A DNA stretch of 64,000 nt from Actinomycetota bacterium (GCA_020637055.1 JACJWR010000001.1:101237-165236); one strand, 5' to 3'; shown: positions 4,294-51,064, numbered from the stretch's first letter. Program-made: numbers and translations. The notes: a model not told the origin generated them from the letters alone.

Positions 4294-4311
4294 CCCGCCG
4301 TCACCGGCGGG
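4294..4311 (-). terminator. Stem-loop directly after GT2 gene (CCCGCCG-GTGA-CGGCGGG on minus strand)
   Basis: 7-bp GC stem, 4-nt loop, 15 nt downstream of the stop at 4326-4328; no U-tract (I-shaped type common in high-GC actinobacteria). Confidence 0.45.
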
Positions 4312-4325
4312 GCGGCCAGTTTCAC

Positions 4326-7366: not shown

Positions 7367-8358
7367 GGCATCCGCCGGGATTCGCGGCGACCCGGACACA
7401 ACCGACCGTGGCGCTGCTCCAAGATTCGGTGCACGGCGGAGAGCGGTTGCCGGCGGCGGCGCCAGACGTCGGCGACCACCGCAGCCCCATCGGGGGTCCA
7501 GGCCAGGGTGTGGGTGCCCAGCGCATCGGCGCTCAGGTCGGTGCCTTCGATTCGGCGGCGCACCTCGCCCGGGCCCGGGACGGCCGGGTCCCAAGTCACC
7601 AGGGAGGTGGCGACCCCGTAGTTCTCGGAGCAATCCTGCGTGCTGCGAAGACCGCGCGTGAGGTCGAGGTTCCCCGCCGGACGCGCGAGCACGGCGTCGC
7701 GGAATCGGACCTCGGGCTGTTCGATCCAGCCGACACCTTCCGGCGCGACCCACTGGCGGAACCCGGCGAACTCGTCCGAGCCGCTGGTGCCGGTGAGGTA
7801 CCAGTCCTGCCCGCCGTGGGGATCGAGCAGCGTCGTCGGATCGTCCTCGTCGGGCACCACGACCGGCGTGGGTCCGGGCGGCGGGATCGCGATCGCCGGA
7901 TCGATCACGCCGACCGGCAGGGTCCGCAGCGAGGCGATCCACGGCTCACCGACGGCGGTGAAGGTGTAGGTCGGGGCGGCCGGGTCGCACGATTCCACGG
8001 TGGCCACCCACGTCCCGTCGTTGAGGTGCACCTGCGGGAAGGAGAAATGGTGGGAACTCGCCAGCACCGTGCGGCGGGTGACCACCTGACCGGTCTCGGA
8101 GACCCGCAACGCCACTATGCGGCCCAATCCACGCCAACGGAGGTACTCCTCCACGAAGATCCACAGGTCGCCGGCGGCATCCCGGACCGGGAACGGGTCG
8201 GCCCAGAATCGGTCCCGCTCGGGAGCAGCGAGGAAAGCTCCGCCGGGCGGAGCGCCGTCGAGGAGGTCGTCGAGGGTGGGCGCGAGCACGACCACAGCCC
8301 ACGCCCGCTCCTGGGTGACACCGCGGATCAGCCGGCTCACGCCGTCCGCGCCGGTCAT
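7363..8358 (-). CDS. GINT1_N-like (glucosamine inositolphosphorylceramide transferase N-terminal-like / GH43-like beta-propeller) protein of unknown function
   Basis: FWADPFPVRDAAGDLWIFVEEY, HHFSFPQV, ARPAGNLDLTRGLRSTQDCSENYG resemble the motifs I recall for this family. Start ATG 8358-8356 overlaps the GT4 stop (ATGA). Confidence 0.6.
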   Translation of the reverse strand: MTGADGVSRLIRGVTQERAWAVVVLAPTLDDLLDGAPPGGAFLAAPERDRFWADPFPVRDAAGDLWIFVEEYLRWRGLGRIVALRVSETGQVVTRRTVLASSHHFSFPQVHLNDGTWVATVESCDPAAPTYTFTAVGEPWIASLRTLPVGVIDPAIAIPPPGPTPVVVPDEDDPTTLLDPHGGQDWYLTGTSGSDEFAGFRQWVAPEGVGWIEQPEVRFRDAVLARPAGNLDLTRGLRSTQDCSENYGVATSLVTWDPAVPGPGEVRRRIEGTDLSADALGTHTLAWTPDGAAVVADVWRRRRQPLSAVHRILEQRHGRLCPGRRESRRMP

Positions 8359-9554
8359 GGCAGATCCTCCGCATCGACGGGCGGAGCGGGGATCGGCTTT
8401 CCGCTCGCCCCCACGCTGCGGTAGACCTCGGTGATCCGCTCGATCCACTGTGCTTCGGTGTAGCGCTCATCGAAGACTTCCCGACACCTGCGACGCAACT
8501 CATCGCCGCCAGCCTCGACCCAGGCCATCGCCGCCGCCAGGCTCGCGGCGTCCACCCGACCGTCGGCGACGGTGATTCCCATCGCAACCCCGTCGGAGAT
8601 CAACTGCGCAGCATGAGGACTGTTCAGACTCACCACGATGGGAAGTCCCGCCTCGAGCGCTTCGACGATCACCAGCGGCATCGCCGATTCAGGCGCCAGA
8701 CTGGTGAACACCAGCCCGCGGTAGGTGGGCAGCGATTCGCGCAGCGCCATCGGTGGTAGTTGCCCGCGCAGGTGCACCCGGGGACCGGCAAGCTCGGCCA
8801 ATTCGTCGCGCAGCGGACCGTCGCCGACTAGGTCGAGCCGGACGTTGGCAGGCCACCCGCGGACGAGTTCGACGAATCCCTTCTCGGCGCGCAGCCGACC
8901 CACCGCCAGCCACTGGGAATCGTCGGGCATCGCACTGGCCGCTGCGTGCACCTGCGTCACGCCGTTCGGAACCAGCCGGAGCCGTCCGGTGCCCACCCCG
9001 TAGCGGGCGAAGGTGTCGCGGGCGAACGGTGAGAGCACCACCAGGGCGTCGCTGCGGGCGATAAGCGGATTCACCTCGGTGCCCATCGTGTTGCGCAACG
9101 CGATCGGAGTGCTGGCAACCCGCGATTCCCGGTAGCAGGCATGCTCCACCGCCGACCACGGTTTGCCGTCCGGACAGTCGGTGCACAGCCTACCGTCGCG
9201 GAAGAGCAGCCCGTTGGCGCAGATCGGCCGGAAGTTGTGCAGGGTGTGCACAATCGGCCCGGGCCATCGGCGCATCCAGTGCAGGCCGATGTTGGGCACC
9301 GTGTTGTGGATGTGGACCACGTCCGGGGCGAACTGCCGCAGCCGCGGGGCCGGATCGGGCCCGAAACTGGTGATGGTGCGCCAGGCGGCACGCAGTTTGT
9401 AGCCCGGCAGATGCTGTTCGTCGTCGGTGTGGCGACCCAGCAGCAGCACGTCATGCCCGGCCGCTCCGAGTGCTTCGCTCTGCGCCTCCACCACGACGTT
9501 CTCGCCACTGGACTGATCAGAGGCGTAGAAGCTGTGCAGCAGCGCGATTCGCAC
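8355..9554 (-). CDS. GT4 glycosyltransferase with Cys-rich insert
   Basis: VRIALLHSFY...SGENVVVE N-terminus; C-terminal FTSLAPESAMPLVIVEALEAGLPIV (E-x7-E); insert HNFRPICANGLLFRDGRLCTDCPDG...HAC. Start GTG 9554 (or 9563), just after the rmlC stop at 9565. Confidence 0.85.
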   Translation of the reverse strand: MRIALLHSFYASDQSSGENVVVEAQSEALGAAGHDVLLLGRHTDDEQHLPGYKLRAAWRTITSFGPDPAPRLRQFAPDVVHIHNTVPNIGLHWMRRWPGPIVHTLHNFRPICANGLLFRDGRLCTDCPDGKPWSAVEHACYRESRVASTPIALRNTMGTEVNPLIARSDALVVLSPFARDTFARYGVGTGRLRLVPNGVTQVHAAASAMPDDSQWLAVGRLRAEKGFVELVRGWPANVRLDLVGDGPLRDELAELAGPRVHLRGQLPPMALRESLPTYRGLVFTSLAPESAMPLVIVEALEAGLPIVVSLNSPHAAQLISDGVAMGITVADGRVDAASLAAAMAWVEAGGDELRRRCREVFDERYTEAQWIERITEVYRSVGASGKPIPAPPVDAEDLP

Positions 9555-9564
9555 CCGAAGGACC

Positions 9565-10176
9565 TTACCCGGCCTCGCCGGCGAGACCGGCGCGGAACGC
9601 CCGGCAGGCCTCGTAGTCCGGCAGCAGACCCGCGGCCGCCGCCTCCGCCAGGCTGGGCGCCGCATCGTCCTTCGCCGACAACGAGCACTCACCGAGGTCG
9701 AACGGCCAGGCGATACCGATCTCGGAGTCGAACGGGTAAATCTCCCGCTCGCCGGTGGGGTTGTAGGGCTCGCTGCAGAGGTAGGCGACCGTGGAACCGT
9801 CTTCGAGTGCTGCGAATCCGTGTCCGAGGCCTTCGGAGAGGTACACCGCGCGCCGGTCCTTGGTGTCGAGCAGCACGGTCTCCCACATGCCGTAGGTGGG
9901 CGATCCGACGCGGATGTCGACGATCACATCCACCACCGCGCCTGCCAGGCAGGTGACGTACTTCGCCTGACCCGGCGGGACGTCGGCGTAGTGGATGCCG
10001 CGGACCGTGCCCTTGGTCGACACCGAGCAGTTGGCCTGGGCGAGGTGCAGCGGGTGCCCGACTGCCTCGACGAAGGTCTCCTCCTTGAACCACTCGAGGA
10101 ACAACCCGCGCGGGTCGCCGTGCTGCTTCGGGGTGACGACCCAGGCGCCTTCGATACTCAACGGGGTGATCTCCAT
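9565..10176 (-). CDS. rmlC: dTDP-4-dehydrorhamnose 3,5-epimerase
   Basis: DPRGLFLEWF, RGIHYADVPPGQAKYVTC, YLSEGLGHGF cupin motifs. Confidence 0.93.
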   Translation of the reverse strand: MEITPLSIEGAWVVTPKQHGDPRGLFLEWFKEETFVEAVGHPLHLAQANCSVSTKGTVRGIHYADVPPGQAKYVTCLAGAVVDVIVDIRVGSPTYGMWETVLLDTKDRRAVYLSEGLGHGFAALEDGSTVAYLCSEPYNPTGEREIYPFDSEIGIAWPFDLGECSLSAKDDAAPSLAEAAAAGLLPDYEACRAFRAGLAGEAG

Positions 10177-10182
10177 AGCCCA

Positions 10183-10188
10183 ACGCTA
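10183..10188 (-). promoter_or_regulatory. -10-like TAGCGT 6 nt upstream of rmlC ATG (leaderless candidate)
   Basis: Minus strand reads cccgaTAGCGTtgggctATG; no RBS-like purine tract. Confidence 0.4.
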
Positions 10189-10221
10189 TCGGGCGCCGAT
10201 GCATCGAATCGGAGTTCCCCC

Positions 10222-10333
10222 GGCCCACTGCGGTGGCGATGGCCCCGCTTGGCTGGGGCGACCGACAGTGGGCACCTGCGGGCTGCTTGTTTGCCTTCAC
10301 GCCGGCGCGGGGCCATCGCCACCTCCGTGGGCC
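10222..10333 (+). repeat. Long-loop hairpin element, copy A
   Basis: Perfect 17-bp arms GGTGGCGATGGCCCCGC (10232-10248) / GCGGGGCCATCGCCACC (10307-10323), outer 7-bp GGCCCAC/GTGGGCC across a 3x3 bubble, 58-nt core 10249-10306. Confidence 0.8.
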
Positions 10334-10378
10334 TTGCTCCAGCGGGCGCCACCTCGGCGGGCTCGGGTCTGGCGGACC

Positions 10379-10496
10379 GTGCCGGGGGAGTAGGGGGCCG
10401 GCGCCGACGTAAAGGCGAAAAGCGCACGCCGCAGCTGCCCACGGACGAACGCCCCAGTCAAGCCGGCCCCCTACTCCCCCGGCACCACCGTGGGCC
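10379..10496 (-). repeat. Long-loop hairpin element, copy B (inverted relative to A)
   Basis: Perfect 24-bp arms GTGCCGGGGGAGTAGGGGGCCGGC (10379-10402) / reverse complement (10462-10485). The 59-nt core, reverse-complemented, matches the core of A at about 45 of 59 aligned positions by eye. Shares a GGCCCACGGNGGTG-type flank. Confidence 0.8.
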
Positions 10497-10511
10497 CCTG
10501 CCGCCCAGGCA

Positions 10512-10528
10512 CCGCCCGAGGCGGGCGG
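10512..10528 (-). terminator. Small GC stem-loop abutting the stop of the priming transferase gene
   Basis: CCGCCC (10512-10517) pairs with GGGCGG (10523-10528), 5-nt loop, 1 nt from stop 10530-10532. Confidence 0.35.
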
Positions 10529-10529
10529 G

Positions 10530-11942
10530 TCAGTAGGCGCCGCGGCCGGTGATCACGGCCTTGAGGGTCCGCAGCACGATGATCGCGTCCAGCGGCAACG
10601 ACCAGTTCTCGACGTAGTAGAGGTCGAGCATCACCGACTGCTCCCAGTCGAGATCCGACCTGCCCGAGACTTGCCACAGGCCGGTCATGCCAGGTTTCGC
10701 CAGCAGTCGCCGGGTCGCCACATCGTCGTAGCGCTGCACGTCGTCGAGCGGGTGCGGCCGCGGACCGATCAGGCTCATCTGGCCCCACCAGACGTTGAAC
10801 AGCTGTGGCAACTCGTCCAGCGAGAAGCGCCGCAACCAGTGGCCCACCCCGGTGACGCGAGGGTCGCGGGTCATCTTGAACGTCGCGCCGGAGCCGCCGT
10901 GTTCGGCCCGCAACTCCTCTCGCCGGGAATCGGCGTCGACGACCATGGTGCGGAACTTGAAGCACTCGAAGGTGGTGCCGCCGGCCCCGGCCCGGGTCTG
11001 CATGAAGAACACCGGACCCGGGCTGGTCAGTTTGATCAGCGCCGCGAAGATCCCCAACGGAATCGCCAGGGCGATCAACAGCAGCGACGAGCCGATCAAG
11101 TCGATGGCGCGTTTGATGACTCGGGCCGGCCCGGAGAACTTGGGCATCTCGACCCGCACCAGGGCCATCCCGTTGATCGGTTCGATACTGAGCCGCGGTC
11201 CGGCGATGTTCGCGATCTGCGGACTCACCAACAGGGAAAGGTCCTGATCCTCCATCGCCCAGCCGAGCCGTCGGGGCCAGGCTGGATCCTCGTGCTGTGC
11301 GGGGGCGTAGACGATGGTGTCGGCGTCGAGGTCGAGAGCGGCCTTCACCACGACCACCGGATCCGGATCTGGCGCGTCGGTGAGATCCCAACTGCCGACC
11401 TGCTCCATCAGCCCGCCGGACCGGGCGAACTGCTTCTCAAGCTGGGGGTACTGCGCCTGCGCTGCCACTACGAACACCCGATGCAGCGGATCGCCGCGCT
11501 GCAACCTGCGGTGCAGCACATTGCGCATCAGGGATCGATCCGCGAGCAGGAAGAGCGTCCCGACCACGGCGCTGAAGAACAGGTATCGCCTGCCGAACTG
11601 GGTTCCGGTGATGTAGGCCAGTGACATCGTCAGCGCCACGGTCCACAGACTCGCCAGCAGGACACGCCGATACTCCTCGGCACCACCGCCGAGGATCGTG
11701 GTCGCGCGGGTCTGCATCTGCCACAACATCAACGGCCACAAGACCATCAGCGACACGATCATGAACATCCGCGGGCCGTCGCTGGCCGGGCCCTCGTGGC
11801 CGATGTCGAGCACAACTCCCAGCCCCAGGGCCAGCGCGATCGCCACCAAGTCGGCCACCACGACGAGGCGGGAGTGGTTGCGCTCCTCGAGCACCACTCG
11901 GGCACGACCCACCAGATCTTGGGCGCGGCTGTTGAAGCTCAT
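10530..11942 (-). CDS. Polyprenyl glycosylphosphotransferase (WbaP/exopolysaccharide priming sugar transferase)
   Basis: C-terminal LIGPRPHPL...KPGMTGLWQVSGRSDL bacterial sugar-transferase domain, N-terminal TM helices. Start ATG 11942 (MSFNSRAQDL), 19 nt after the UXS stop; the ORF-track 63-aa extension overlaps UXS out of frame. Confidence 0.9.
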   Translation of the reverse strand: MSFNSRAQDLVGRARVVLEERNHSRLVVVADLVAIALALGLGVVLDIGHEGPASDGPRMFMIVSLMVLWPLMLWQMQTRATTILGGGAEEYRRVLLASLWTVALTMSLAYITGTQFGRRYLFFSAVVGTLFLLADRSLMRNVLHRRLQRGDPLHRVFVVAAQAQYPQLEKQFARSGGLMEQVGSWDLTDAPDPDPVVVVKAALDLDADTIVYAPAQHEDPAWPRRLGWAMEDQDLSLLVSPQIANIAGPRLSIEPINGMALVRVEMPKFSGPARVIKRAIDLIGSSLLLIALAIPLGIFAALIKLTSPGPVFFMQTRAGAGGTTFECFKFRTMVVDADSRREELRAEHGGSGATFKMTRDPRVTGVGHWLRRFSLDELPQLFNVWWGQMSLIGPRPHPLDDVQRYDDVATRRLLAKPGMTGLWQVSGRSDLDWEQSVMLDLYYVENWSLPLDAIIVLRTLKAVITGRGAY

Positions 11943-11961
11943 GCCCGGGCACCTGCACGAC

Positions 11962-12909
11962 TCACCCCAGGACTCCCGAGTCCCGGAACCACTCCACCGT
12001 CCGCGCCAAGCCGACGTCCAAGTGCACCTTCGGCTCCCACCCCAGGGTTTCCACCGCCCGGGTGATGTCGGGCTGGCGCTGTTTGGGGTCGTCGGCGGGC
12101 AGCGGCTCGTGCCGCACCTTGCGCCCGCCACCCACGAGGTCGGTCACCCGGGTGGCCAACTCCAGCATCGACATCTCGTTCGGGTTGCCCAGGTTGATCG
12201 GACCGGTCACCTCGTGCTCGGTGGCCATCATCCGAATCAGGCCCTCGACCAGATCGTCCACGTAGCAGAAAGACCTCGTCTGGGTGCCGTCGCCGTAGAC
12301 CGTCAGATCACGCCCCTGCAGCGCCTGGACGATGAAGTTGCTCACCACCCGCCCGTCGTCGGGCTGCATCCGCGGGCCGTAGGTGTTGAAGATCCGCACC
12401 ACCTTGATCGGCATGTCGTGCTGACGGCGGTAGTCGAAGAACAGCGTCTCGGCGCAGCGCTTGCCCTCGTCGTAGCAGGACCGCACGCCGATCGGGTTCA
12501 CGTTGCCCCAGTAGCTCTCATCCTGCGGGTGCACGGTCGGATCGCCGTAGACCTCGGACGTCGAGGAGAGCAGGATCTTCGCGCCCACACGCTTGGCCAG
12601 GCCCAGCATGTTGATCGAGCCGATCACCGACGTCTTCGTGGTCTGCACCGGATCGCGCTGGTAGAACACCGGCGATGCCGGACACGCCAGGTTGTAGATC
12701 TCGTCCACCTCGACGTACAGCGGAAAGGTGATGTCGTGGCGCATCAACTCGAACCTGGGATTGCTCAGCAGGTGGTGAATGTTGCGACGGGTGGACGAAT
12801 AGAAGTTGTCCACGCACAACACCTCGGCGCCCTCATCGAGCAACCGCTCGCACAGATGACTGCCGATGAATCCCGCACCACCAGTCACGAGGACACGCCT
12901 ATACGTCAC
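11962..12909 (-). CDS. UDP-glucuronate decarboxylase (UDP-xylose synthase)
   Basis: [47 protein letters not shown]: strong resemblance to the UXS/ArnA-decarboxylase SDR family. GTG start. Confidence 0.88.
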
Positions 12910-12916
12910 ACCGGCC

Positions 12917-12922
12917 AGTCTA
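12917..12922 (-). promoter_or_regulatory. -10-like TAGACT 7 nt upstream of UXS GTG (leaderless candidate)
   Basis: Minus strand reads ggtTAGACTggccggtGTG. Confidence 0.4.
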
Positions 12923-13073
12923 ACCCTGGGCCACCGGCGGACCCGCGCATTTGGGTCCCGGCGAAACCGGCGCCCCCCGACCCTGCCCGGGCGGCGGCGC
13001 CCGCCACCGCCGGAGCACCGTGATCCGCCGATAGGCTGATCCCCGAACCCCGACGGCTCGGCGAGGAGGTGCG

Positions 13074-14198: not shown

Positions 14199-15082
14199 AC
14201 GAATCCGCGGGCGACGGGCCGTGGCTGTCGGTGGTGACGGTGGTGCGCAACGACGCCGACGCCCTGCGGCGCACGATCGACAGCGTCGCCACCCAGCAGA
14301 CCGACCTGCTCGAACATCTGATCGTGGACGGGGCCTCCACCGACGACACGCTGCCTATCGCCCGAGCCGCCGAATCCCACTCGCCCTGGCTGCGGGTGGT
14401 GAGCGCCGAAGACTCCGGGATCTACAACGCGATGAACTCCGGTATCGGCCTGGCACGCGGATCTCACCTGCTCTTCCTCAACGCCGGCGACGACTTCACC
14501 TCCCCGGGCGAGGTCGCCGCGGTGCACGAGGATTGGCGACGCGAGCGCTATGACTGGGGCCGCTATCGCGCACGATTCGTCGATGCCGCCCGCAACTCCA
14601 CCCGACCGCTGTCGTCGGCCGAGTTGGACGTCGACCGTTTCCTGCGTGGGGAGCAGGAGCGGTACCACCAGGGCGCGATCATGTCGAAATCGATGCTGGT
14701 GCAGTTGGGCGGATTCGACGAGCGCTATCGGATCGTGGCCGACTTCGACTTGATGAGGCGGGCGCTGTTGGCCGGCTACCGGCCGTGGATCAGCGAGCGG
14801 ATCATCACCGACTACGACGCGTCGGGCCTGTCGGCGGTGGCCTGGCGGCGGTCGTTGGCCGAGGAACACGCGGTGCGCTGCGCCGGGGCAGCCCCGGCGG
14901 TTCGCGCGTCGTCCACCTGGACCTACGCCCGCCGGGCGGCCGTGATCGCCACGAAACGTTCGCTGCGCCGGGGCGCCGAGCAAGTGCTCGGGAAGGAGCG
15001 GGTCAGCGCACTGCGCGGTGCCGATCTGGCCGCGGCGCCGGAAGGCGCGGAGAAGGCGGAGGGATCCCCGCATGGCCGGTAG
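14195..15082 (+). CDS. GT2 glycosyltransferase
   Basis: LSVVTVVRNDADAL...LIVDGASTDDT...IYNAMNSGI...FLNAGDDF. GTGA overlap with the preceding gene. Confidence 0.88.
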   Translation: MNESAGDGPWLSVVTVVRNDADALRRTIDSVATQQTDLLEHLIVDGASTDDTLPIARAAESHSPWLRVVSAEDSGIYNAMNSGIGLARGSHLLFLNAGDDFTSPGEVAAVHEDWRRERYDWGRYRARFVDAARNSTRPLSSAELDVDRFLRGEQERYHQGAIMSKSMLVQLGGFDERYRIVADFDLMRRALLAGYRPWISERIITDYDASGLSAVAWRRSLAEEHAVRCAGAAPAVRASSTWTYARRAAVIATKRSLRRGAEQVLGKERVSALRGADLAAAPEGAEKAEGSPHGR

Positions 15083-42671: not shown

Positions 42672-44156
42672 TTACCGGTCCGGCTGACCGGGGTGGTCGG
42701 CCGTGGCCGGATCGGGTTGCGGCTCGGCATCCGCTCCGGCCGAAGGGAGTGGCAGATCATCGAACGGCAGTTCCGGCTGTTCGCCCGCAGCCCCGTGGTC
42801 GGCCGGATCGGGTGTCGGAGCGCCCTGTTGACGCCCCCATCTGACCGAGTGATCCGCGAGCGCCGCCGCCCGCATCCGGGCGATCTCGGAGACGATGACC
42901 TCGCCTGCCTCGCCGATCCCCCGGTGCAGGGCCACCGGCTTGACCGGGCCGGGGACCACGTCGAAATGCACGCTGGCAAGCCCGAGCGCCCGTTCCCACG
43001 GACCTTGCGTCATGCGCACCGACTGCACCCGGGCATGCGGCGTGACGGTGGTGCGGCGGGTGAGCCAACCGCGGCGTGACACCACGACTTCGTCGTCGGC
43101 GCCCAGCCCGAGGTTGCGCCATTGGAAGGGCGATCTGCGACGGGCTTGGGGCGGCGCCGGCTCGAGCGGGAATCGGACTACGTCCACCCCGGGCAGCACC
43201 CGTCCGATGACCTCGGTGGCGACATCCCAGGTGGCCACCGGCAGCAGCATCGCCGATGATCCGCCGTTGTCATCGTCGGAGGAGGCGCTCTGGGTGCCCG
43301 CGACGGTGATTCGCACCATCACCCAGCGCGACCTGCGCCACAGCACGGGTTCGACGAATTCGATCGATGCCACCCGACCGGGTGGGACCGTGTGGGCCTG
43401 CACCCCCAGCAGGCCGAAGCGGGTGCGGAGCCCGTCCGGGCTCTGCGCCACCGTGAAGTTGAAGTAGGCCGCGAAGAACCCGAACATCGTGAAGAAGGGA
43501 ACCGCCAGCAGGAACAACAACCCGAACCCCAACCAGCCGCCGGTGACGAAGGCGACCACGATCACGACCAGGAAGATGAGGAAGGTCAGCCAGACCCCGG
43601 TGTTGAGCAAGGCCGCTTTGGCCAGGATCGGATTGGGCACCTGCACCAGAACCGTCTCGGGCGCCTCGCCGGCGTCGGGCCGTACGCCGGCCGCCCGCGC
43701 CAGCGTCTCCGCCCGGAAGGCCTGCGCGTCGTCCACTGTCAGATACGACAGGGTCACCCGGGAATCGCCCGATCCGGCGACCTCGACCTTCACCACGGCC
43801 ATGCCGAACACACGCGCCAGCAGCGGCTGGGCCACGTCAACACTCTGCAGCCGGGATAGTTGCAGCCGGCGCTCTTTGCGCTCCAGCACCCCCGAAGCCA
43901 CCCGCAGATCGCCATCGCCGTCGAACCAGAACTCGAACCGGGTCCACTGCAGGTAGGTGATCCCGAAGGCCAGCGCCAGCACAAGCAGGGCGATACCGCC
44001 GCCGAAAAGCACCGCCCGGAAGTCGAGGCTGCCCAGCGAACCGAAGAATTGCAGGACCGCGACAACGACCACCACGGCCGCCACCCGTACCGCGTTGACC
44101 AGCGGGGTGATGGGTGCGGTCCGCCGTCGGGGCGTCGCGCCGGTTGATTCAGACAC
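42672..44156 (-). CDS. Membrane protein with three bacterial PH (bPH_2) repeats (YdbT-like)
   Basis: Three repeats of the pattern G.L.R.....L.R.QSV....P...R..G...V.V, separated by TM hairpins; acidic/Pro-rich C-terminal tail. Confidence 0.75.
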   Translation of the reverse strand: MSESTGATPRRRTAPITPLVNAVRVAAVVVVVAVLQFFGSLGSLDFRAVLFGGGIALLVLALAFGITYLQWTRFEFWFDGDGDLRVASGVLERKERRLQLSRLQSVDVAQPLLARVFGMAVVKVEVAGSGDSRVTLSYLTVDDAQAFRAETLARAAGVRPDAGEAPETVLVQVPNPILAKAALLNTGVWLTFLIFLVVIVVAFVTGGWLGFGLLFLLAVPFFTMFGFFAAYFNFTVAQSPDGLRTRFGLLGVQAHTVPPGRVASIEFVEPVLWRRSRWVMVRITVAGTQSASSDDDNGGSSAMLLPVATWDVATEVIGRVLPGVDVVRFPLEPAPPQARRRSPFQWRNLGLGADDEVVVSRRGWLTRRTTVTPHARVQSVRMTQGPWERALGLASVHFDVVPGPVKPVALHRGIGEAGEVIVSEIARMRAAALADHSVRWGRQQGAPTPDPADHGAAGEQPELPFDDLPLPSAGADAEPQPDPATADHPGQPDR

Positions 44157-44158
44157 GG

Positions 44159-44659
44159 TCAGATCCCCGCGCCGCGGGACTCGCCGGCGGCCGCGAGCCG
44201 GTCGCGCAGACCCGAGGCTTTCTCAGGTGTGAGACCGGGGATGGTCGCATCAGTCGTCGCCGCAGCCGTGTGCAAGCGGACCGTTGCGATTCCGAAGGCC
44301 CGATCCAAGGGCCCCGCCACCACATCGACCAACTGCAGCCTGCCGTAGGGCACCACCACCAGGCGGCGGAACAGGATGCCGCTGGTCACCAGCAGGTCCT
44401 CGGAGCGCTCGACGTAGCCGTAGGACCGTACCCGCCGACCGATCAGCCACCACGACCAGACCGAGCCTGCGATCAGCAGCACCAGCAGCAGCACCGGGAT
44501 CCAAGCAGGGATCGGAGCCGCCAACCAGATCACGACGACGATCACCAGCAACACCAGACTGACGACTCCCTGGGTCAGCCGCCGGACGGTCACCAACTTC
44601 TCTGACAACCGCACCCAATGCTCGGTTTCTGGCCGGAACGTGTCGTCGATTGCGTCCAT
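44159..44659 (-). CDS. Membrane protein with a single bPH_2 domain (YdbS-like)
   Basis: Two TM helices, then DLLVTSGILFRRLVVVPYGRLQLVDVVAGPLDRAFGIATVRLHTA. Start ATG 44659; stop is 2 nt from the YdbT-like start. Confidence 0.75.
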   Translation of the reverse strand: MDAIDDTFRPETEHWVRLSEKLVTVRRLTQGVVSLVLLVIVVVIWLAAPIPAWIPVLLLVLLIAGSVWSWWLIGRRVRSYGYVERSEDLLVTSGILFRRLVVVPYGRLQLVDVVAGPLDRAFGIATVRLHTAAATTDATIPGLTPEKASGLRDRLAAAGESRGAGI

Positions 44660-44679
44660 GCGCTCCAATCTAGGCCACG

Positions 44680-45816
44680 ATGAACACCATGGAGCGCATC
44701 CGATGGGAGCTGCCGCGCAGCAACCGCCATCCGGCCGCGGCCGGTGGGCTGATGCTCGAGCTGGAAGTGGCCGACGGCCAGGTGTGCCGGGCGGATCCGA
44801 TCCCCGGGCGCGAGCACCGCGGTGCCGAGAAGCTGTTCGAGTCACGGGACTACCGATCGTTGCTGGCCCTGGCCAACCGGCACGACTGGCTCGGCTCGTT
44901 CACCTCCGAACTCGGCCTGGCGCAGTTGCTGGAGGCCTTCCTCGGCATCGAAGTGCCCGAGCGAGCCCGCTGGATCCGCACCCTGCTGGCCGAATACACC
45001 CGAATGGCCCATCATCTGCTGTGGCTTTCGAGCACCCTGGCGGAGTTGACCGGGCCGGCGTCACCGCAGGCGATGGGACCGGTGCGAACCGGCCACCTGG
45101 CGCGGCGCCTGGTGCTGGATGGGATCGAGTCCTACAGCGGCACTCGGATGCACCCGATGCTGGTGGCGATCGGCGGCCTGCGAGCCGACTACCCGGACGG
45201 GTGGCTGCACGAGGTGCAGCGAAGCCTTCCGCCGGTGCTTGACGCCGCGGCGGTACTGCGCGAGACCTACCTGGCTGAGGATCTGGGATTGACCGGTCTG
45301 GCTCCGCTGAGCCGTTCGGCGGCCTGGGACTACTCGACCTCGGGTCCCGTGGCCAGAGCCAGCGGGGTCGGCTTCGACCTTCGCCTCGACCGTCCCGACG
45401 AGTGCTACCAGGCGCTGATCGACGCCGGTTCGCTGCGACGGGTGGAGAGCACAGCAGGCGATGCGCAGACCAGACTGCTGGTGCTCACCGAGCAATTGGC
45501 CGTCAGCGCAGACTGTGTGCGGCAGTGCACCGAGGTTCTGGCGGAGTTCGACGACGGCGAGCCGGTCAACGTCGACCTGCCGCGATCCATCCGGTTGCCG
45601 GAGGGCCACGGCTACGCCGAGACGGAGAATCCGGGTGGAATCAACGGCTGGTATCTGGTCTCGCGCGGCGGCACCCATCCCTACCGGGTCAAACTGCGCA
45701 CCGGCTCCTACAACAACGCGGCAGCCATGGCAGCCGCCCTCCCCGGCACCACGTTGGAGCAGCTGCCGGCCGCCGTGTTCAGCTTCCTGCTGCTCGCCGG
45801 CGACGTCGACAAATGA
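44680..45816 (+). CDS. Orphan NuoD-like protein (Complex I 49-kDa / NiFe-hydrogenase large-subunit fold), probably non-catalytic
   Basis: 378 aa aligning by eye end to end with NuoD/Nqo4: HRGAEKL (vs HTGFEKT), EVPERARWIRTLLAEYTRMAHHLLWL, RMHPMLVAIGGL, AETENPGGINGWYLVSRGG..YRVKLRTGSYNN, C-terminal AGDVDK (vs MGDVDR). No other nuo genes in the window. Confidence 0.75.
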   Translation: MNTMERIRWELPRSNRHPAAAGGLMLELEVADGQVCRADPIPGREHRGAEKLFESRDYRSLLALANRHDWLGSFTSELGLAQLLEAFLGIEVPERARWIRTLLAEYTRMAHHLLWLSSTLAELTGPASPQAMGPVRTGHLARRLVLDGIESYSGTRMHPMLVAIGGLRADYPDGWLHEVQRSLPPVLDAAAVLRETYLAEDLGLTGLAPLSRSAAWDYSTSGPVARASGVGFDLRLDRPDECYQALIDAGSLRRVESTAGDAQTRLLVLTEQLAVSADCVRQCTEVLAEFDDGEPVNVDLPRSIRLPEGHGYAETENPGGINGWYLVSRGGTHPYRVKLRTGSYNNAAAMAAALPGTTLEQLPAAVFSFLLLAGDVDK

Positions 45817-47157
45817 CTAGGAAGGGCCCACCCAGATCCTGCGGCCCCTGCGTTTGGCCTCGTACAGCCGGCGGTCGGCGGTCCGCAGCAGGTCCTCGGG
45901 GTCACGCAACTGCGAGCCCTGCGCGACGGCGAGTCCCGCGCTCAGCGTCACCGCTTGCGGCGGATCCGGCCGCGCGGGTGACGCTGTGGCCGGCCGGTCC
46001 GGCAAACCGATAGCCGCCAGATCCCGCCAGACGTCGGCCAGCCAGCGCTGGGCGGAATCCGCGTCGCAGCCGGGGATGAGCACCGCGAACTCGTCGCCGC
46101 CCCAGCGGGCGGCCAGACCCCGCGGACGGGGCACCCGATGGGCGAGGAAATCCGCGAGTTCCCGCAGCACCGAGTCGCCGGCCTCGTGTCCCGACTCGTC
46201 GTTGATGGACTTGAACCAGTCCACATCCATCACCGCCAGCGCCAACGGCTCGCCGGTCGCCGCAGCCACCGCAGTCATCACGTGGAGTTGCTCGTCGAAG
46301 TGCCGCCGGTTGGCAAGTCCGGTCAGCGCGTCCTCTCGGGACCTCGATTCGGCTTCCCGTTCGGCGATCTTCTGCGCGGTGACGTCGGTGCGCACCGAGA
46401 CGTAGCCGACGATTTGGCCGAGCATGTCGTGGCGTGGCGAGATCGAGGCCGCCACCCAGTAGAGGGACCCGTCCTTGCGCATGTTGCACACCTCACCGCG
46501 CCACACCCGGCCGGACGTGAGCGTGTCCCACATCGCGGTGTAGAACTCCGGCGGATGGTGCCCGGACTTGAGGATGCGATGGTTCTGGCCCAGCAACTCG
46601 TCGCGACGGTAGCCCGAGAGTTCGCAGAACGCCTGATTCGCGTGCGTGATGGTGCCTTCGACATCGGTCATCGAGACGATGGTGTGCTGGTCGATGGACT
46701 CGAGCAGGGTGGTCATCGACTCGTGCGAGGTCTTCAAGTCGGTGATGTCGGTGAACGTGGCCACCGCCCAGGTCTGCTCACCGACCGGGACCGGATTGGC
46801 ATCGATGAGGATCCACCGGTAGTCGTCCACGGCCGGGTTGAAGACCCCCATCGTCACACCGCGGACCGGTTCGCCGGTGGCAAGCACCTGCATCGCCGGA
46901 TGTTCCTCGCCGGGGAACTCGCGGTGATCTTCACGCACGGCACGCCACCGCGGATCGATCGAGGTCCGGCCCTGCATCTGGGTGATGCTCAAGCCGAGAA
47001 TGCGCTCGGCTGCGCTGTTGGCGTCCCGGATGGCGCCGTCGGGCGATTGGTAGACGACACCTACCGGCAAGTGGCCGAAGAGGGTGGCCCGCCACTCCTC
47101 GTGCCTGCTGGCCGGTCCGTCGGCAAACCGGGAGGTGACGTCAGCACTCACGCTCAC
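45817..47157 (-). CDS. PAS-PAS-GGDEF diguanylate cyclase
   Basis: Two PAS-like modules (..DANSAAERILG.., ..HANQAFCELSGYRRDELLGQNHRILKSG..), LTGLANRRHF, DVDWFKSINDESGHEAGD, intact GGDEF in RWGGDEFAVL. GTG start. Confidence 0.88.
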   Translation of the reverse strand: MSVSADVTSRFADGPASRHEEWRATLFGHLPVGVVYQSPDGAIRDANSAAERILGLSITQMQGRTSIDPRWRAVREDHREFPGEEHPAMQVLATGEPVRGVTMGVFNPAVDDYRWILIDANPVPVGEQTWAVATFTDITDLKTSHESMTTLLESIDQHTIVSMTDVEGTITHANQAFCELSGYRRDELLGQNHRILKSGHHPPEFYTAMWDTLTSGRVWRGEVCNMRKDGSLYWVAASISPRHDMLGQIVGYVSVRTDVTAQKIAEREAESRSREDALTGLANRRHFDEQLHVMTAVAAATGEPLALAVMDVDWFKSINDESGHEAGDSVLRELADFLAHRVPRPRGLAARWGGDEFAVLIPGCDADSAQRWLADVWRDLAAIGLPDRPATASPARPDPPQAVTLSAGLAVAQGSQLRDPEDLLRTADRRLYEAKRRGRRIWVGPS

Positions 47158-47223: not shown

Positions 47224-48150
47224 CTAGTCGACCAAACCCTTCGACGTGAGGAACTCCTCCGCCACCTTGCGGGGGTTGGCCCGGTCGACTTCGATCTGCT
47301 GGTTCATCTGTTGGAGTTCTTCGGTGGTCAGCGCGGCCGACACCGCGTCCAGCGCGGCCACGACGGTGTCGCTGGCGGCCGCCGAATTCAGCGCCGGGGT
47401 GACGTTCTCGGCGGTCTGCAACTGCTTGTCGTCGGTGAGCACCACGAGGTCGTTCGAGGTGATGGAGCCGGAGGAGGAGAACACCAGGCCGACGTTGATC
47501 TTGCCTTGGGTGAGGGCTTGCACCGTGAGCGGACCGCCGGCGTCCAGCGGCGTGAAAGAGGCGATCTTCATCCCGTAGGTCTCCTCCAGGCCGGGCTGGC
47601 AGAACGGCCGCTGCGGGCATTCCGGCGGACCACCGAGGTTGACCGGGTTGGTTTGCGAATAGGCGGCGAGGTCCGAGAGCGTCTTCAGGTTGTTGGCCTT
47701 GGCGAACTCGGAGGTGACCGCGAAGGCGTTCTGGTCCTGCGCCGGCGACGGTGTGAGCAGGGCGATTCCCTGCTGCTCGGCCAGCGGCTTGGCCGCCTCG
47801 TAGGTGGCCGCGGCATCGCCGGTGGCCAACTGCGGTGCGTCGGGCCCGTTCACCTGGCGGTTGATGAACTCGGTGAAACTTCCGAGGTACTCGGGGGTGG
47901 CCTGGATCTCGCCGGACTCCAGCGCCGGGATGATCACTTCCCGGGTGGTGAGTTCCTTGATCGAAGCGCTGACACCCTTCGACTCCAGAATCTGCTGGTA
48001 CATGTTGGCCAACAGGGTGGTCTCGGAGAAGTTGGTGGTCGCGATGGTGATCGACTCCGAATCCCCGCCCGAGCCACCCGAATCCGACGAACAACCGGCG
48101 ATGAGCAGGGCGGATGCGGCGACGGCGGTGGCAAGAACACGAAGTCTCAT
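47224..48150 (-). CDS. Osmoprotectant (glycine betaine/choline-type) ABC transporter substrate-binding lipoprotein
   Basis: LLIAGCSSD lipobox; OpuBC/OsmF-like pattern (TNFSETTLLANMY.., YGMK..F.PLD.GGPLT..AL..G.I). Confidence 0.8.
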   Translation of the reverse strand: MRLRVLATAVAASALLIAGCSSDSGGSGGDSESITIATTNFSETTLLANMYQQILESKGVSASIKELTTREVIIPALESGEIQATPEYLGSFTEFINRQVNGPDAPQLATGDAAATYEAAKPLAEQQGIALLTPSPAQDQNAFAVTSEFAKANNLKTLSDLAAYSQTNPVNLGGPPECPQRPFCQPGLEETYGMKIASFTPLDAGGPLTVQALTQGKINVGLVFSSSGSITSNDLVVLTDDKQLQTAENVTPALNSAAASDTVVAALDAVSAALTTEELQQMNQQIEVDRANPRKVAEEFLTSKGLVD

Positions 48151-48157
48151 GCCGCGA

Positions 48158-48178
48158 GCGTGTCATCAGTCGACACGC
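48158..48178 (-). promoter_or_regulatory. Intercistronic stem-loop between the permease and binding-protein genes
   Basis: GCGTGTC (48158-48164) pairs with GACACGC (48172-48178), 7-nt loop, in the 76-nt gap. Confidence 0.35.
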
Positions 48179-48226
48179 CGGACCAGGATTCCCGAGCGGG
48201 TCGTTACCGAGTTGTGACCAGGTGAT

Positions 48227-48934
48227 TCACCCCGCCACCGGCTCCGGCGCGTCCATCGCGGGTTGGTCGGTCAGACTGTCGGCCTTCATCCCGCGGGGTG
48301 TCACCACACGTTGCAGCAACGCCATGACACCCTCGGCCGCAACCGAGATGGCGGCGGTCAGAATCGCACCGGCCACGATCAGGGTGGTGTCCTGCAGGGC
48401 GAAACCGTCCACCACGTAGCGTCCGAGACCGCCCGACCCCACCACCGCGGCCAGCGACGCGGTGGCCACCACCTGAACGGACGCGGTGCGGATACCGGCT
48501 GCGAGCAACGGCACGGCCAGTGGGATCTCGACCCGCCAGAGCACCGCGACCCCACCCATCCCCATGCCGACGGCGGCGTCCCTGACCTCTGGATCGACGC
48601 CGCTGATGCCGGTGAAAGTGTTGGTCAGCAGCGGCGGGATCGCGAACAGCGCCAGCGCCAGGATCGCCGCGAGATCACCCACCCCGATGGCGGCGATCGA
48701 CGCCAAGATGATGAGCACACCAAGGGTCGGAACGGCGCGGCCGATGTTGCCGATGTTGGTGGCCACGAACGTTCCCTTGCGGGCGTGCCCGAGGATGAGT
48801 CCGACCGGCAGCGCGACCACCAGCGCGATGAGCATCGCCGAGACGCTAATGACGATGTGCTGCCAGGTGCGCACCGGAATGCCGTTGGGACCGCTCCAGT
48901 TGGCCGGATCGGTGAACCACTGCCACACGCTCAC
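48227..48934 (-). CDS. ABC transporter permease (OpuBB/OsmW-like)
   Basis: BPD_transp_1-type permease with EAA-like loop VRDAAVGMGMGGVAVLWRVEIPLAVP; GTGA overlap with the upstream permease gene. Confidence 0.85.
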   Translation of the reverse strand: MSVWQWFTDPANWSGPNGIPVRTWQHIVISVSAMLIALVVALPVGLILGHARKGTFVATNIGNIGRAVPTLGVLIILASIAAIGVGDLAAILALALFAIPPLLTNTFTGISGVDPEVRDAAVGMGMGGVAVLWRVEIPLAVPLLAAGIRTASVQVVATASLAAVVGSGGLGRYVVDGFALQDTTLIVAGAILTAAISVAAEGVMALLQRVVTPRGMKADSLTDQPAMDAPEPVAG

Positions 48935-49623
48935 GCCGACCTCCTATTCCGCGACCACGGCGTCAGCCCCCACTGAACGCCCAGTAGCAGGACTTCGAAG
49001 ACCACCGCCAGCAGCACGCAGCAGATCGTCGCGGTGGCGATCTGCGCGTGATAGAAGTTCTGCTGGAATCCGGAGAGGATCAGTTGGCCGAACCCGCCGT
49101 AGCCCACCAGCGCGCCGATCGTCACCATCCCGACGGTCGACACGGTGGCGATCCTGATGCCGGCCAGGATGGTGGGCATCGCCAGCGGCAACTCGACCCG
49201 CAGCAGAGTCTCCCGCTTCCCCATACCCATGCCTTGGGCGGCATCGACCACGTCCGTCGGCACGCCGTCCAGACCGACGATGGTGTTGCGCAGCACCACC
49301 AGCAGCGCGTAGACGGCGAGCGCCAGCACCACCGTGGCAGGAGAGAGCCCGAAGACCGGCCACAGCAATGAGATCAGCGCCAACGACGGGATCGTGTACA
49401 TCACTCCGCTGAGGCCGAGAACGGCCGGCTCCCAACGTCGGAATCGGCGCACCAGCACCGCCAGCGGGAACGCCACCAGCAGCGCCAGCGCCACCGAAGA
49501 TACGGTCAGGAACACGTGCTGTTGACCGGCCTGGATCAACTCGTCGGAGTACTCCGTCACGTAGTCCCAGGAGAACCACGGGTTCGACGAGTCGGCCCAG
49601 AGGTCGGGTGAGATCGGAGTCAC
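48931..49623 (-). CDS. ABC transporter permease (OpuBD/OsmY-like)
   Basis: VVDAAQGMGMGKRETLLRVELPLAMP EAA loop, 5-6 TM. Confidence 0.85.
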   Translation of the reverse strand: MTPISPDLWADSSNPWFSWDYVTEYSDELIQAGQQHVFLTVSSVALALLVAFPLAVLVRRFRRWEPAVLGLSGVMYTIPSLALISLLWPVFGLSPATVVLALAVYALLVVLRNTIVGLDGVPTDVVDAAQGMGMGKRETLLRVELPLAMPTILAGIRIATVSTVGMVTIGALVGYGGFGQLILSGFQQNFYHAQIATATICCVLLAVVFEVLLLGVQWGLTPWSRNRRSA

Positions 49624-49663
49624 CCCACCGACGCTACCGCCGACGGCGAAGGCTGTTCAGCAA

Positions 49664-49738
49664 TTGTGACAAAGCGTTATCTGGCTTCGACTTCTTCGCC
49701 TCGGCGTTCGACTTTCCACCCCGCAGCGACAGTTGTGA
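49664..49738. promoter_or_regulatory. Repeat motifs in the divergent Opu control region
   Basis: CAGCnAnTTGTGA at 49664-49669 and 49733-49738 (TTGTGA cores); TTCGACTT at 49686-49693 and 49707-49714 (21-nt spacing). Confidence 0.3.
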
Positions 49739-49795
49739 TGATCTAACGTGGACCGCATCGCCCGAACCGGGACCGCCGAGAGAGGACGAACCGCG

Positions 49796-50752
49796 ATGGA
49801 CCACACCGCCGATCCGATGATTCGGCTGGACAACGCCAGCAAGCAGTATCCCGATGGCACTGTGGCGGTGCACGAGCTCACCATGGACGTCCGGCCGGGG
49901 GAGATCTGCGCGCTGGTCGGACCGTCCGGGTGCGGCAAGACCACCACCATGCGAATGATCAACAGGCTGGCGGAACCGACCGGCGGCCGGGTGCTCGTGG
50001 GTGGCGTAGATGTCACCGAGGTCGACGTCAAGGAGTTGCGCCGCCACATCGGCTACGTGATCCAGGCGGTGGGCCTGTTCCCGCACTACACGGTGGGTAA
50101 GAACGTCGCGACCGTCTGTTCGCTGTTGGGTTGGGACTCGGCCCGGATCAAGAGTCGGGTGGACGAACTGCTCGAACTGGTCGGGCTGCCGCCGGGGGTG
50201 TATCGGGATCGCTACCCGCATCAACTCTCCGGCGGTCAGCGGCAGCGGGTCGGGGTGGCCCGGGCACTCGCGGCGGATCCACCCGTGCTGCTCATGGATG
50301 AACCCTTCGGCGCCGTGGACCCCATCGCCCGGGACAACCTGCAGACGCAGTTCCTCGCACTCCAGGAACGGGTGCGCAAGACCGTGGTGCTGGTGACCCA
50401 CGACATCGACGAGGCGGTCCGGATGGCCGACCGCATCGCGGTGATGAAACAGGGCGGCTACCTCGAGCAGTACGCCGCGCCGGCGGAGATCCTCGCGCAT
50501 CCGGCCAACGATTTCGTGGCCGACTTCGTGGGCGCCGATCGCACCCTGAAACGACTCTCGGTGACACCGCTGCCTTCGCTGTCCCAGACCGCGGGCGACG
50601 ACCTCCCGCAGGTGCCGGCGGACGCGACCCTGCAAGAGGCCCTGACGGCGCTGCTGGAGTCACCCAAGGGAAAGGTCGCGGTAGTCGGAGACACCGAACC
50701 CCGATTGCTCACCTTGGATGCGGTGCACGCCGCCCTGCAGAGCGCGGCCTAG
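49796..50752 (+). CDS. Osmoprotectant ABC transporter ATP-binding protein
   Basis: GPSGCGKTT Walker A, LSGGQRQRV signature, LLMDEPFGAVD Walker B, short C-terminal regulatory tail. ATG 49796 preceded by GAGAGAGGA. Confidence 0.9.
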   Translation: MDHTADPMIRLDNASKQYPDGTVAVHELTMDVRPGEICALVGPSGCGKTTTMRMINRLAEPTGGRVLVGGVDVTEVDVKELRRHIGYVIQAVGLFPHYTVGKNVATVCSLLGWDSARIKSRVDELLELVGLPPGVYRDRYPHQLSGGQRQRVGVARALAADPPVLLMDEPFGAVDPIARDNLQTQFLALQERVRKTVVLVTHDIDEAVRMADRIAVMKQGGYLEQYAAPAEILAHPANDFVADFVGADRTLKRLSVTPLPSLSQTAGDDLPQVPADATLQEALTALLESPKGKVAVVGDTEPRLLTLDAVHAALQSAA

Positions 50753-50776: not shown

Positions 50777-51064
50777 TCAGCCGTCCGACTCCGCCCCATG
50801 CTCGCGCAGGTAGGTGGCGAAGCGCGCGACGAACAGCGGTTCCATCTCCCCCACCGACTCGGAGCCGAACGCCTCCCGGGCGGCGGAGACCAACTCGATG
50901 ATCGACCCGGAGGTCTCCCCGAGCGACCCGCCTTCGGTCGACATCGCGTTCATCGCCGGGGTGTGCCGGAAGAGGTCGTAGAAGAAGCCGAGGTCGTGGC
51001 GCTGCTCAGCGAGTTCGAAAGCCTTGTCGCGCAGTTCGTCGTACGGGAGATCCTCATAGGCCAT
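50777..51064 (-). CDS. Small acidic hypothetical protein (95 aa)
   Basis: MAYEDLPYDELRDKAFELAEQRHDLGFFYDLFRH...; coding-like composition; start overlaps the DUF3180 gene end by 11 nt. Confidence 0.55.
   Translation of the reverse strand: MAYEDLPYDELRDKAFELAEQRHDLGFFYDLFRHTPAMNAMSTEGGSLGETSGSIIELVSAAREAFGSESVGEMEPLFVARFATYLREHGAESDG

Follow-up and report, generated by a model that had tools for sequence, protein, structure and literature searches.

NuoD2, an orphan NuoD paralogue of Actinomycetota with a remodelled quinone chamber and an apparent genomic pairing with a MidA-type methyltransferase gene

Results and discussion

An orphan NuoD-fold gene

A 64,000-nucleotide stretch of DNA from an Actinomycetota bacterium (GCA_020637055.1 JACJWR010000001.1:101237-165236; below, the window) holds, between a YdbS-like gene and a diguanylate cyclase gene, an orphan gene for a homologue of the complex I subunit NuoD, which we call D2. 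Its sequence places the gene very probably in the actinobacterial orphan NuoD2 family, and the result that we regard as the most interesting lies outside the window: NuoD2 genes apparently form a conserved genomic pair with a gene for a MidA/NDUFAF7-type methyltransferase. D2 and the elements in it on which the argument draws are the following, counted from the first letter of the window.

44680-45816, plus strand: orphan NuoD paralogue assigned to the NuoD2 family, 378 residues (open reading frame, Pfam, AlphaFold2 (AF2) model)
44725-44745, plus strand: degenerate beta1-beta2 loop RHPAAAG, residues 16-22; by alignment, Ala21 replaces the ligand His (Thermus His38, Yarrowia His95)
44815-44835, plus strand: HRGAEKL, residues 46-52; Arg47 corresponds to NDUFS2 Arg85 and Yarrowia Arg121, the NDUFAF7 target in the second sphere of cluster N2
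44875-44889, plus strand: NRHDW, residues 66-70; Trp70 replaces the ligand Tyr (Thermus Tyr87, Yarrowia Tyr144), and Arg67 corresponds to Yarrowia Arg141
45028-45090, plus strand: variable-length loop, residues 117-137, with the column equivalent to Asp139 (Glu122 here)
45139-45153, plus strand: GTRMH, residues 154-158, with the invariant His158; aligned to GARLH of yeast NUCM
45586-45591, plus strand: junction Ser303/Ile304 of the short-form segment, where the alignment shows a gap of about 25 residues against 14-subunit-type NuoD, which has its ...SMESLIHHFKL... helix there
45778-45813, plus strand: C-terminal FSFLLLAGDVDK, residues 367-378; by alignment, Leu370 replaces the quinone-chamber Asp401

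The reading frame is uninterrupted, and its G+C content at third codon positions (GC3, 0.85) is similar to that of the adjacent genes. An alternative start at the second ATG (44689) gives 375 residues, the form held at NCBI as an identical protein (MCB0916340.1) from an "Actinobacteria bacterium" metagenome-assembled genome. Both ATGs, for Met1 and Met4, are kept (M..MERIRW) across the window clade, by which we mean the window and loci L001-L003 and L009; ENA and Logan calls give the 378-residue form and NCBI the 375-residue form.

A sequence-only reading of this DNA had aligned the protein by eye with NuoD/Nqo4 along its whole length and had proposed a Pfam search and a structural superposition as checks. 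Both bear the alignment out: D2 matches the Pfam family Complex1_49kDa (E 6e-37), solved NuoD/49-kDa chains match residues 14-378 (HMMER, E 1e-39 to 1e-30), and the AF2 model, built on 93 homologues, has a mean predicted local distance difference test score (pLDDT) of 93.7 and a predicted template modelling score (pTM) of 0.93 and superposes on bacterial, mitochondrial and chloroplast NuoD chains with template modelling (TM) scores of 0.84-0.88. The Nqo4 motifs quoted in that reading, QHPSTHG and RMDYLHSF, agree with the 2fug_4 sequence. The sole soft stretch of the model, with the lowest pLDDT, is residues 41-60; it holds the HRG loop, which in canonical complex I packs against NuoB and cluster N2.

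D2 has the same full-length fold and the same Pfam domain as canonical NuoD/Nqo4/NDUFS2, but it differs from canonical NuoD in several respects: it lies outside a nuo operon, scores below the NCBIfam NuoD equivalog cutoffs (215 vs 360 bits for NF004739, 200.5 vs 459 for TIGR01962 and 196 vs 522 for NF008974), has the His, Tyr and Asp401 replaced, is about 25 residues shorter after residue 303 and falls in a separate clade. In structure-based alignments its identity to canonical NuoD chains is 25-29%, and to the mycobacterial one 27-28%. No NiFe-hydrogenase Cys motif was found at either site, as had been observed before, and the NCBIfam NiFeSe hydrogenase model gives 19 bits against a cutoff of 600. 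The homology to group 4 [NiFe]-hydrogenase large subunits is distant (MbhL 6cfw_L, E 3e-19; HycE 7z0s_E, E 4e-13); D2 is much closer to NuoD, and the hydrogenase-type subunits are operon-encoded. Mbx- and Ehr-type NuoD-like subunits share with D2 the theme of lost ancestral active-site ligands.

That no other nuo gene is present in the 64 kb holds for the genes searched: Pfam returned no second complex I family for D2, the three genes next to it and another 30 called genes, and what else lies in the 34-57 kb block was identified solely through synteny with Pfam-annotated loci of relatives; a few small genes and three gaps of 0.8-0.9 kb fall outside this search. These results confirm the window gene as an intact orphan homologue with the NuoD fold.

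The quinone chamber and the iron-sulfur-facing residues

The HMMER alignment to yeast NUCM places RHPAAAG under QHPAAHG and NRHDW under DRLDY, so that Ala21 and Trp70 stand in the positions of the two quinone ligands; the replacement of both, proposed from a comparison by eye, is upheld by this alignment. We then counted the residues at the chamber positions, in Thermus numbering, in 64 family representatives and 21 outgroup NuoDs. The Tyr87 column is Trp in all 64 representatives and mostly Tyr in the outgroup. Asp is found at the Asp401 column in none of the family (Phe in 21, Leu in 18, Pro in 9, Gly in 7, and others) vs 18 of the 21 outgroup sequences. The Asp139 column is unconserved in the family and Asp or Glu in 20 of the 21 outgroup sequences; in the window clade the loop that holds it (residues 117-137) is rich in indels and poorly aligned, and the placement of Glu122 rests on that alignment. 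The His38 column retains His in 39 of the 64 family members (most others have Ala, Pro, Asp, Thr or Gln, and four have gaps) and in 17 of the 21 outgroup sequences. Ligand loss therefore holds as a defining trait in one part only: the Tyr-to-Trp change is family-wide, but the loss of the His is lineage-specific, mainstream members keeping GPQHP[ST]THGVLR.

In mutagenesis summarised in PMC4758237, Trp in place of the quinone-site Tyr severely lowered decylubiquinone reduction and conferred inhibitor resistance, and short-chain quinones still reacted. The description of the site as "quinone-site-dead" was too strong, since in these published mutants Trp impairs quinone reduction without abolishing it, and for the family as a whole "dead" is too strong because short-chain quinones still react. 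For the window protein, which lacks the Tyr, the His and Asp401, canonical quinone reduction appears unlikely.

The replaced positions aside, D2 shares with canonical NuoD the motifs HRGxEK, RxD, GxRxH, GPxxRxSG, GD..xR and a C-terminal GDxD in the alignment. Three alignments, of 25, 93 and 33 sequences, show no variation at residues H46, R47, G48, E50, K51 and L52, at R67, H68 and W70, or at G154, R156 and H158. His158 is presumably the redox-Bohr histidine of N2 (Yarrowia His226). The Yarrowia equivalents of Arg47 and Arg67, Arg121 and Arg141, belong to the second sphere of N2 (PMC8042128).

The segment that follows the GD..R helix, after residue 296, has 15 residues in 61 of the 64 family members, the window protein included, vs 35-41 in canonical NuoD. 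It has the same length in the two best matches outside the family, P0196 and P0205, whose genes stand in nuoA-B-C-D-H-I-J-K-L operons that have no E, F or G. These 11-subunit-type NuoDs share the short segment and the HRG motif with D2, and P0205 also has Trp at the Tyr site. Unlike D2, they are encoded inside an operon and keep His38, Asp/Glu139 and Asp401. An operon of this type in L169 (nuoA-B-C-D-H-I-J-K-L, 5848-12224) encodes a NuoD with Trp at Tyr87 (NRIDW) and with His38 and Asp401 kept; a heliorhodopsin gene (3795-4598) lies about 1.2 kb upstream of it.

The NuoD2 family

Far from being a one-off oddity, the gene belongs, as a diverged copy, to a very large paralogue family of Actinomycetota whose entries the databases call plain "NuoD". 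An alignment-based scan with one genome per species gave at least 592 genome matches, with Micromonosporaceae and Intrasporangiaceae among them; the best 80 include Streptomyces, Kribbella, Dactylosporangium, Streptosporangium, Actinomadura, Intrasporangium, Terrabacter and Acidothermaceae. Homologues at 44-67% identity are numerous, all of them 360-395 residues long and all automatically named "NuoD". A HMMER search of 1.84 billion representatives found 159 representative clusters (50% clustering) at E<=1e-30, and the Streptomyces cluster at 90% identity alone has 2,956 members. The family signature consists of HRGAEKLFE and RHDW, and the window protein carries both (residues 46-54 and 66-70). 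In a neighbour-joining (NJ) tree of 85 sequences, midpoint rooted and without bootstrap, the RHDW clade is monophyletic and contains the clade of the window. Across the loci examined, none of the RHDW-family members was seen to have a neighbouring nuo gene; a "PGCPP" pattern for NuoB, run on six-frame translations of all loci, gave many off-frame matches in the GC-rich DNA and was discarded.

The Streptomyces members at the fol-pan locus are 43-46% identical to the window protein over residues 16-378 and have the same RHDW and HRGAEKLFE. According to PMC8388888 and PMC3765725, Streptomyces carries a further gene, nuoD2, at a distance from a nuoA2-B2-H2..N2 operon in which C, D, E, F and G are missing, and we infer that the D2 genes of the fol-pan locus are this nuoD2. 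From Streptomyces nuoD2 the window copy differs in lying on a fast branch, in lacking the canonical loop His and in having no adjoining methyltransferase gene. The literature searched held no functional study of nuoD2, and a search with SCO3392 returned 0 papers; NuoD2 is a paralogue family known by name and uncharacterised.

Degli Esposti (2015; PMC4758237) described a Tyr87-to-Trp change together with a change at position 401 as rarities in the "NuoD" of Streptomyces that make piericidin, and linked them to self-resistance. In the D2 paralogue, which our genome scan finds across Streptomyces, the two changes are universal; the producer pattern may reflect the paralogue having been picked and not a producer-specific adaptation.

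In mainstream lineages no gene of the neighbourhood is better conserved than D2, which shows 69-80% identity between orders vs 47-66% for PanC, NadB and the Rossmann-like gene. Matches in a metagenome scan were almost all mainstream D2; L089 and L092 alone are close to the window clade.

A methyltransferase gene beside NuoD2

A gene of the Methyltransf_28 family (PF02636, the MidA/NDUFAF7 family) is present in 79 of 89 loci, and in 91 of the 101 loci with adequate flanks. In 29 loci it lies directly upstream of D2 on the same strand, within 300 nt; overlaps of 4-28 nt with the start of D2 occur in L004, L008 and L171, and the two genes are often coupled in translation. A convergent position immediately 3' of D2 is found in 21 loci. 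The PF02636 assignment is above the Pfam cutoff, and the proteins have a MidA-type NE.LD..P motif that can be aligned to 4f3n, a COG1565 structure. The pair is kept where flanking genes vary and where D2 alone is inverted, as in part of Streptomyces. Since the two genes stay together despite changed flanks and the inversion of D2, their adjacency appears to be more than passive synteny.

The inverted arrangement is found in the Streptomyces loci L022, L030, L040, L047, L054, L070, L074, L077 and L087, where D2 lies around 10001-11100 and converges on the methyltransferase gene with the 3' ends overlapping by about 29-36 nt. Other Streptomyces have the methyltransferase gene directly upstream of D2 on the same strand; in L013, L028 and further Streptomyces loci D2 lies at about 9932-11074. 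On a deep branch with RHEW, a 290-residue gene without a Pfam family (L172, 10135-11007, and L173, 4058-4930, both minus strand) converges on D2 with a 3-nt gap and occupies the place that the methyltransferase has in other lineages. We considered it as a diverged methyltransferase and rejected this, as it gave no match to PF02636.

NDUFAF7/MidA symmetrically dimethylates Arg85 of NDUFS2, the arginine of the HRGxE motif, which lies 3.7 Å from N2; the methylation is needed for early complex I assembly and is present in Paracoccus but not in Escherichia coli (PMC3829151, PMC9006661, PMC8042128). In D2 the arginine so targeted is present, within an HRGxE motif as well, and in most loci the PF02636 gene adjoins or overlaps it. 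The canonical NuoD of Mycobacterium smegmatis (8e9g_D) and Thermus Nqo4 instead have GYLHTG, with Thr in the place of the arginine, so that a canonical NuoD like the mycobacterial one cannot be a substrate for this methylation and D2 can. By analogy, the actinobacterial MidA homologue probably dimethylates Arg47 of D2. The known NDUFAF7/MidA pairs differ from this one in being mitochondrial or alphaproteobacterial, in acting on the canonical subunit and in having no reported operon linkage; the partner in this case is an actinobacterial orphan paralogue. No paper linking NuoD2 with MidA was found in the literature searched, and the conserved pairing in Actinomycetota is apparently unreported.

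The window itself lacks the pair: tblastn with two PF02636 proteins over the 44 kb upstream and 18 kb downstream of D2 found no such gene (best E 0.42). The gene is also absent from the loci L001-L003 and L009. The sequence-only reading missed the methyltransferase because the gene is missing from the window locus. We also examined whether loss of the loop His tracks loss of the methyltransferase, and rejected it: L171 has an overlapping methyltransferase gene and a D2 without the canonical His.

The clade of the window gene

Among the genes of its neighbourhood in the window clade, D2 shows the lowest conservation, with 66% identity vs 74-89% for the other genes between the window and L001, and 50% vs 60-78% between the window and L002. 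Its ratio of nonsynonymous to synonymous substitution rates (dN/dS) is 0.23-0.44 vs 0.07-0.15 for the neighbours, that is, 2-4 times theirs, at a dS of about 1.1, which is near saturation. The His column is occupied by Ala, Pro, Asp, Thr or His. Conversely, 72 columns are invariant within the clade, all core motifs among them, and more than 30 distinct clusters at 90% identity have intact reading frames of constant length. Decay into a pseudogene had been named as a refuting outcome; the dN/dS well below 1, the invariant columns and the intact frames speak against it: judged by its substitution pattern, the window D2 is under purifying selection. The window copy is on a derived branch, with the methyltransferase gone from the locus and the loop His unconstrained.

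Gene neighbourhood

The features that flank D2 in the window are the following.

44159-44659, minus strand: YdbS-like membrane protein with one bPH_2 domain (Pfam, E 4.5e-15), divergent from D2
42672-44156, minus strand: YdbT-like membrane protein with three bPH_2 stretches (Pfam, E 2e-37), co-directional with ydbS
45817-47157, minus strand: PAS-PAS-GGDEF diguanylate cyclase (Pfam), convergent with D2, the stop codons abutting
44660-44679, no strand: 20-nt divergent spacer between the start codons of the YdbS-like gene and D2, with a conserved CCAATCTAGG block

In all loci examined, D2 lies in the fol-pan housekeeping block, of the order ftsH-folE-folP-folB-folK-DUF3180 ... Rossmann-like (DUF2520)-panC-(nadB-nadC or panD)-coaX-lysS-lsr2, and the gene order of the window is that of L001-L003. 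The YdbT, YdbS, D2 and GGDEF genes of the window were tested by Pfam here; nadC, nadB, panC, the Rossmann-like gene, an OpuA-type ABC transporter, DUF3180 and the fol genes were assigned through homology clusters shared with relatives. A YdbS homologue is directly upstream of D2 and divergent in 38 of 101 loci, including all five further loci counted with the window clade, and YdbT accompanies YdbS; between the window and L001, YdbT is 80% identical. The GGDEF cluster, on the other hand, is found only in the window and its closest relative L001 among 89 loci. The proposal that conservation of the neighbourhood be examined has thus had a divided outcome, with the YdbS/YdbT pair and the fol-pan block conserved and the GGDEF gene not, and the diguanylate cyclase, which had been named among the flanking genes, is an incidental neighbour.

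The tight packing around D2 was described correctly. The ATG of the divergent YdbS-like gene is at 44659 (minus strand), 20 nt away, and the TGA of D2 (45814-45816) abuts the TAG of the PAS-GGDEF gene (45817-45819, minus strand). The abutting convergent stops without a terminator are confined to the window and L001 and involve the non-conserved GGDEF gene. The spacer is 19-20 nt in L001 and L002 as well; its length is kept across the window clade and its sequence partly kept. On the minus strand the CCAATCTAGG block is TAGATT, 7 nt ahead of the start codon of ydbS, where L002 has TACGCT. TAGATT may be a TANNNT-type -10 element of a leaderless ydbS mRNA, in which case the upstream promoter elements of that transcript would fall within the first D2 codons. 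A sigma-70 promoter scan of 44300-46200, with a consensus that fits actinobacterial promoters poorly, found none, and a terminator scan of the same region gave one terminator-like site at chance level, inside the open reading frame.

Possible roles of NuoD2

The explanation that we favour, and to which we would give about an even chance, is that D2 is a separately encoded alternative D subunit that docks on a NuoB-type partner, in Nuo2 or in a hybrid complex, with the HRG arginine first methylated in most lineages and with the window copy keeping the docking and not the quinone chemistry. The neighbouring MidA-type enzyme would dimethylate the invariant HRG arginine of D2, as happens in mitochondria and Paracoccus, and D2 would then dock through its conserved N2-facing surface on a NuoB-type iron-sulfur subunit as an alternative subunit of the Q module. 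The partner could be the N-module-less Nuo2 complex (nuoA2-B2-H2..N2, whose Streptomyces operon has no D gene) or a hybrid that includes subunits of the canonical complex, and the quinone chemistry of a module with D2 would be non-canonical. The window copy would probably keep a docking or structural role with canonical quinone reduction lost. The likeness to the 11-subunit-type NuoDs gives modest support to the idea that D2 arose from an N-module-less complex, such as the one that the Streptomyces nuo2 operon represents minus its D gene.

Several observations weigh against this explanation. Because the sample of loci is phylogenetically redundant, with Streptomyces heavily represented, and comes from a single ancient syntenic block, part of the adjacency of D2 and the methyltransferase gene could be inherited synteny. 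The missing methyltransferase gene of the window-clade loci, together with the fast D2, would also fit relaxation after loss of a partner. The lead of the 11-subunit-type NuoDs over other matches outside the family is small (166 and 159 vs 153 and 150 bits), nor do they come out as the sister group of D2 in the NJ tree. The Nuo2 operon lacks NuoC, and we know of no orphan NuoC and no NuoC2; a complex of Nuo2 and D2 would be incomplete unless the canonical NuoC is shared. Finally, without the Tyr, Asp401 and, in the window, the His, it is hard to see what the substrate of such a module would be.

The first alternative, which we consider unlikely, is that D2 is a free-standing scaffold or sensor, alone or with YdbS/YdbT, for example a membrane-tethered ligand or redox sensor outside complex-I-type assemblies. 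It accords with the orphan state of D2 in every locus, with the remodelling of the quinone chamber across the family, and with the divergent YdbS/YdbT genes, whose spacer length and motif are conserved and whose YdbT is well conserved in the window clade. A free protein, however, has no obvious reason to keep the invariant Arg47 and Arg67, which in complex I face NuoB and N2 (PMC8042128). Mainstream D2 also surpasses housekeeping enzymes in conservation, as is usual for a subunit with many interfaces; about 60% of the loci have no YdbS/YdbT beside D2, and the GGDEF neighbour is not conserved. The earlier suggestion of a repurposed scaffold or sensor thus keeps its foundation (an orphan with an intact fold and replaced ligands) but points in the less likely direction. 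A displaced member of a split nuo system, which that reading had named as a refuting outcome, appears more likely than a free-standing sensor, because the N2-facing residues are invariant and because Streptomyces has a nuoA2-B2-H2..N2 operon without a D gene.

It is quite unlikely that D2 of the window lineage is a relic under relaxed selection, drifting to loss without a new function after its partner (the methyltransferase, the Nuo2 complex or both) was lost. The low local conservation of D2 in the window clade, its raised dN/dS, the drifting His column and the lack of a PF02636 gene in the window, L001-L003 and L009 are what this would produce. A dN/dS that is still well below 1, with dS near 1.1, speaks against it, as do the constant-length frames of the many clusters, the 72 invariant columns with all core motifs and the confident structure model.

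Of similarly low probability is a broader proposal built on the same gene pairing, that NuoD2 and the MidA-type methyltransferase form an unrecognised actinobacterial module, in which a methyl-arginine NuoD paralogue without quinone reduction would have a role of its own (redox- or iron-sulfur-linked sensing, or assembly control), rewired to YdbS/YdbT independently of complex I in the window clade.

Very unlikely, finally, is an inhibitor-resistant spare part that replaces canonical NuoD in the 14-subunit complex I and so confers insensitivity to Q-site antibiotics such as piericidin at a cost in activity: Tyr87-to-Trp and position-401 changes, both family-wide in D2, are reported to give strong resistance to rotenone, 2-decyl-4-quinazolinyl amine (DQA) and piericidin with short-chain quinones still reacting (PMC4758237), and actinomycetes are known to make such inhibitors, but D2 has merely 25-29% identity to canonical NuoD chains, the absence of the canonical helix of about 25 residues makes the compatibility of its interfaces doubtful, the family is far wider than the known producers, and the window protein lacks the His as well.

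Whatever the role of D2, thousands of actinobacterial entries that go by the plain name "NADH-quinone oxidoreductase subunit D" belong to a separate paralogue whose quinone chamber is remodelled, and mixing D2 with canonical NuoD can mislead metabolic reconstructions and residue-level inferences, such as those on natural inhibitor resistance. If the operon-level link between the methyltransferase and NuoD2 is true, it would offer a tractable bacterial system, for example in Streptomyces, for the role of dimethylation of the N2-facing arginine in assembly and at cluster N2. Such a system would be of particular use since M. smegmatis, the only actinobacterium whose canonical NuoD was looked at, has Thr at the arginine position. 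The window clade resembles a natural experiment, in which the methyltransferase has been lost from the locus, the His lost and the rate raised, and which may tell which constraints vanish once the link is broken.

Other genes of the window

The first 20 kb or so of the window (about 1-20 kb) hold a polysaccharide-biosynthesis cluster with glycosyltransferases, RmlD, a dTDP-glucose dehydratase-like protein, a Wzy-like protein and a Wzt-type ABC ATPase. Three stretches of 0.8-0.9 kb in this cluster (9693-10529, 12132-13073 and 14199-15017) have no open reading frame that passes the GC3 frame-plot caller. An 845-residue protein with DUF7657 and DUF7654 is also encoded within it (5405-7942, minus strand).

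Between D2 and DUF3180, an OpuAC-type (glycine-betaine-like) ABC transporter occupies 47224-50752, with a binding protein, two permeases and a divergent ATPase; it is inserted there in many, though not all, D2 loci, including those of Streptomyces. Between its ATPase gene and the DUF3180 gene lies an open reading frame of 95 residues (50777-51064, minus strand) with high GC3 and no Pfam family, which recurs at a like position in many relatives (cluster 31; 93-95 residues in L001, L005, L007 and L008).

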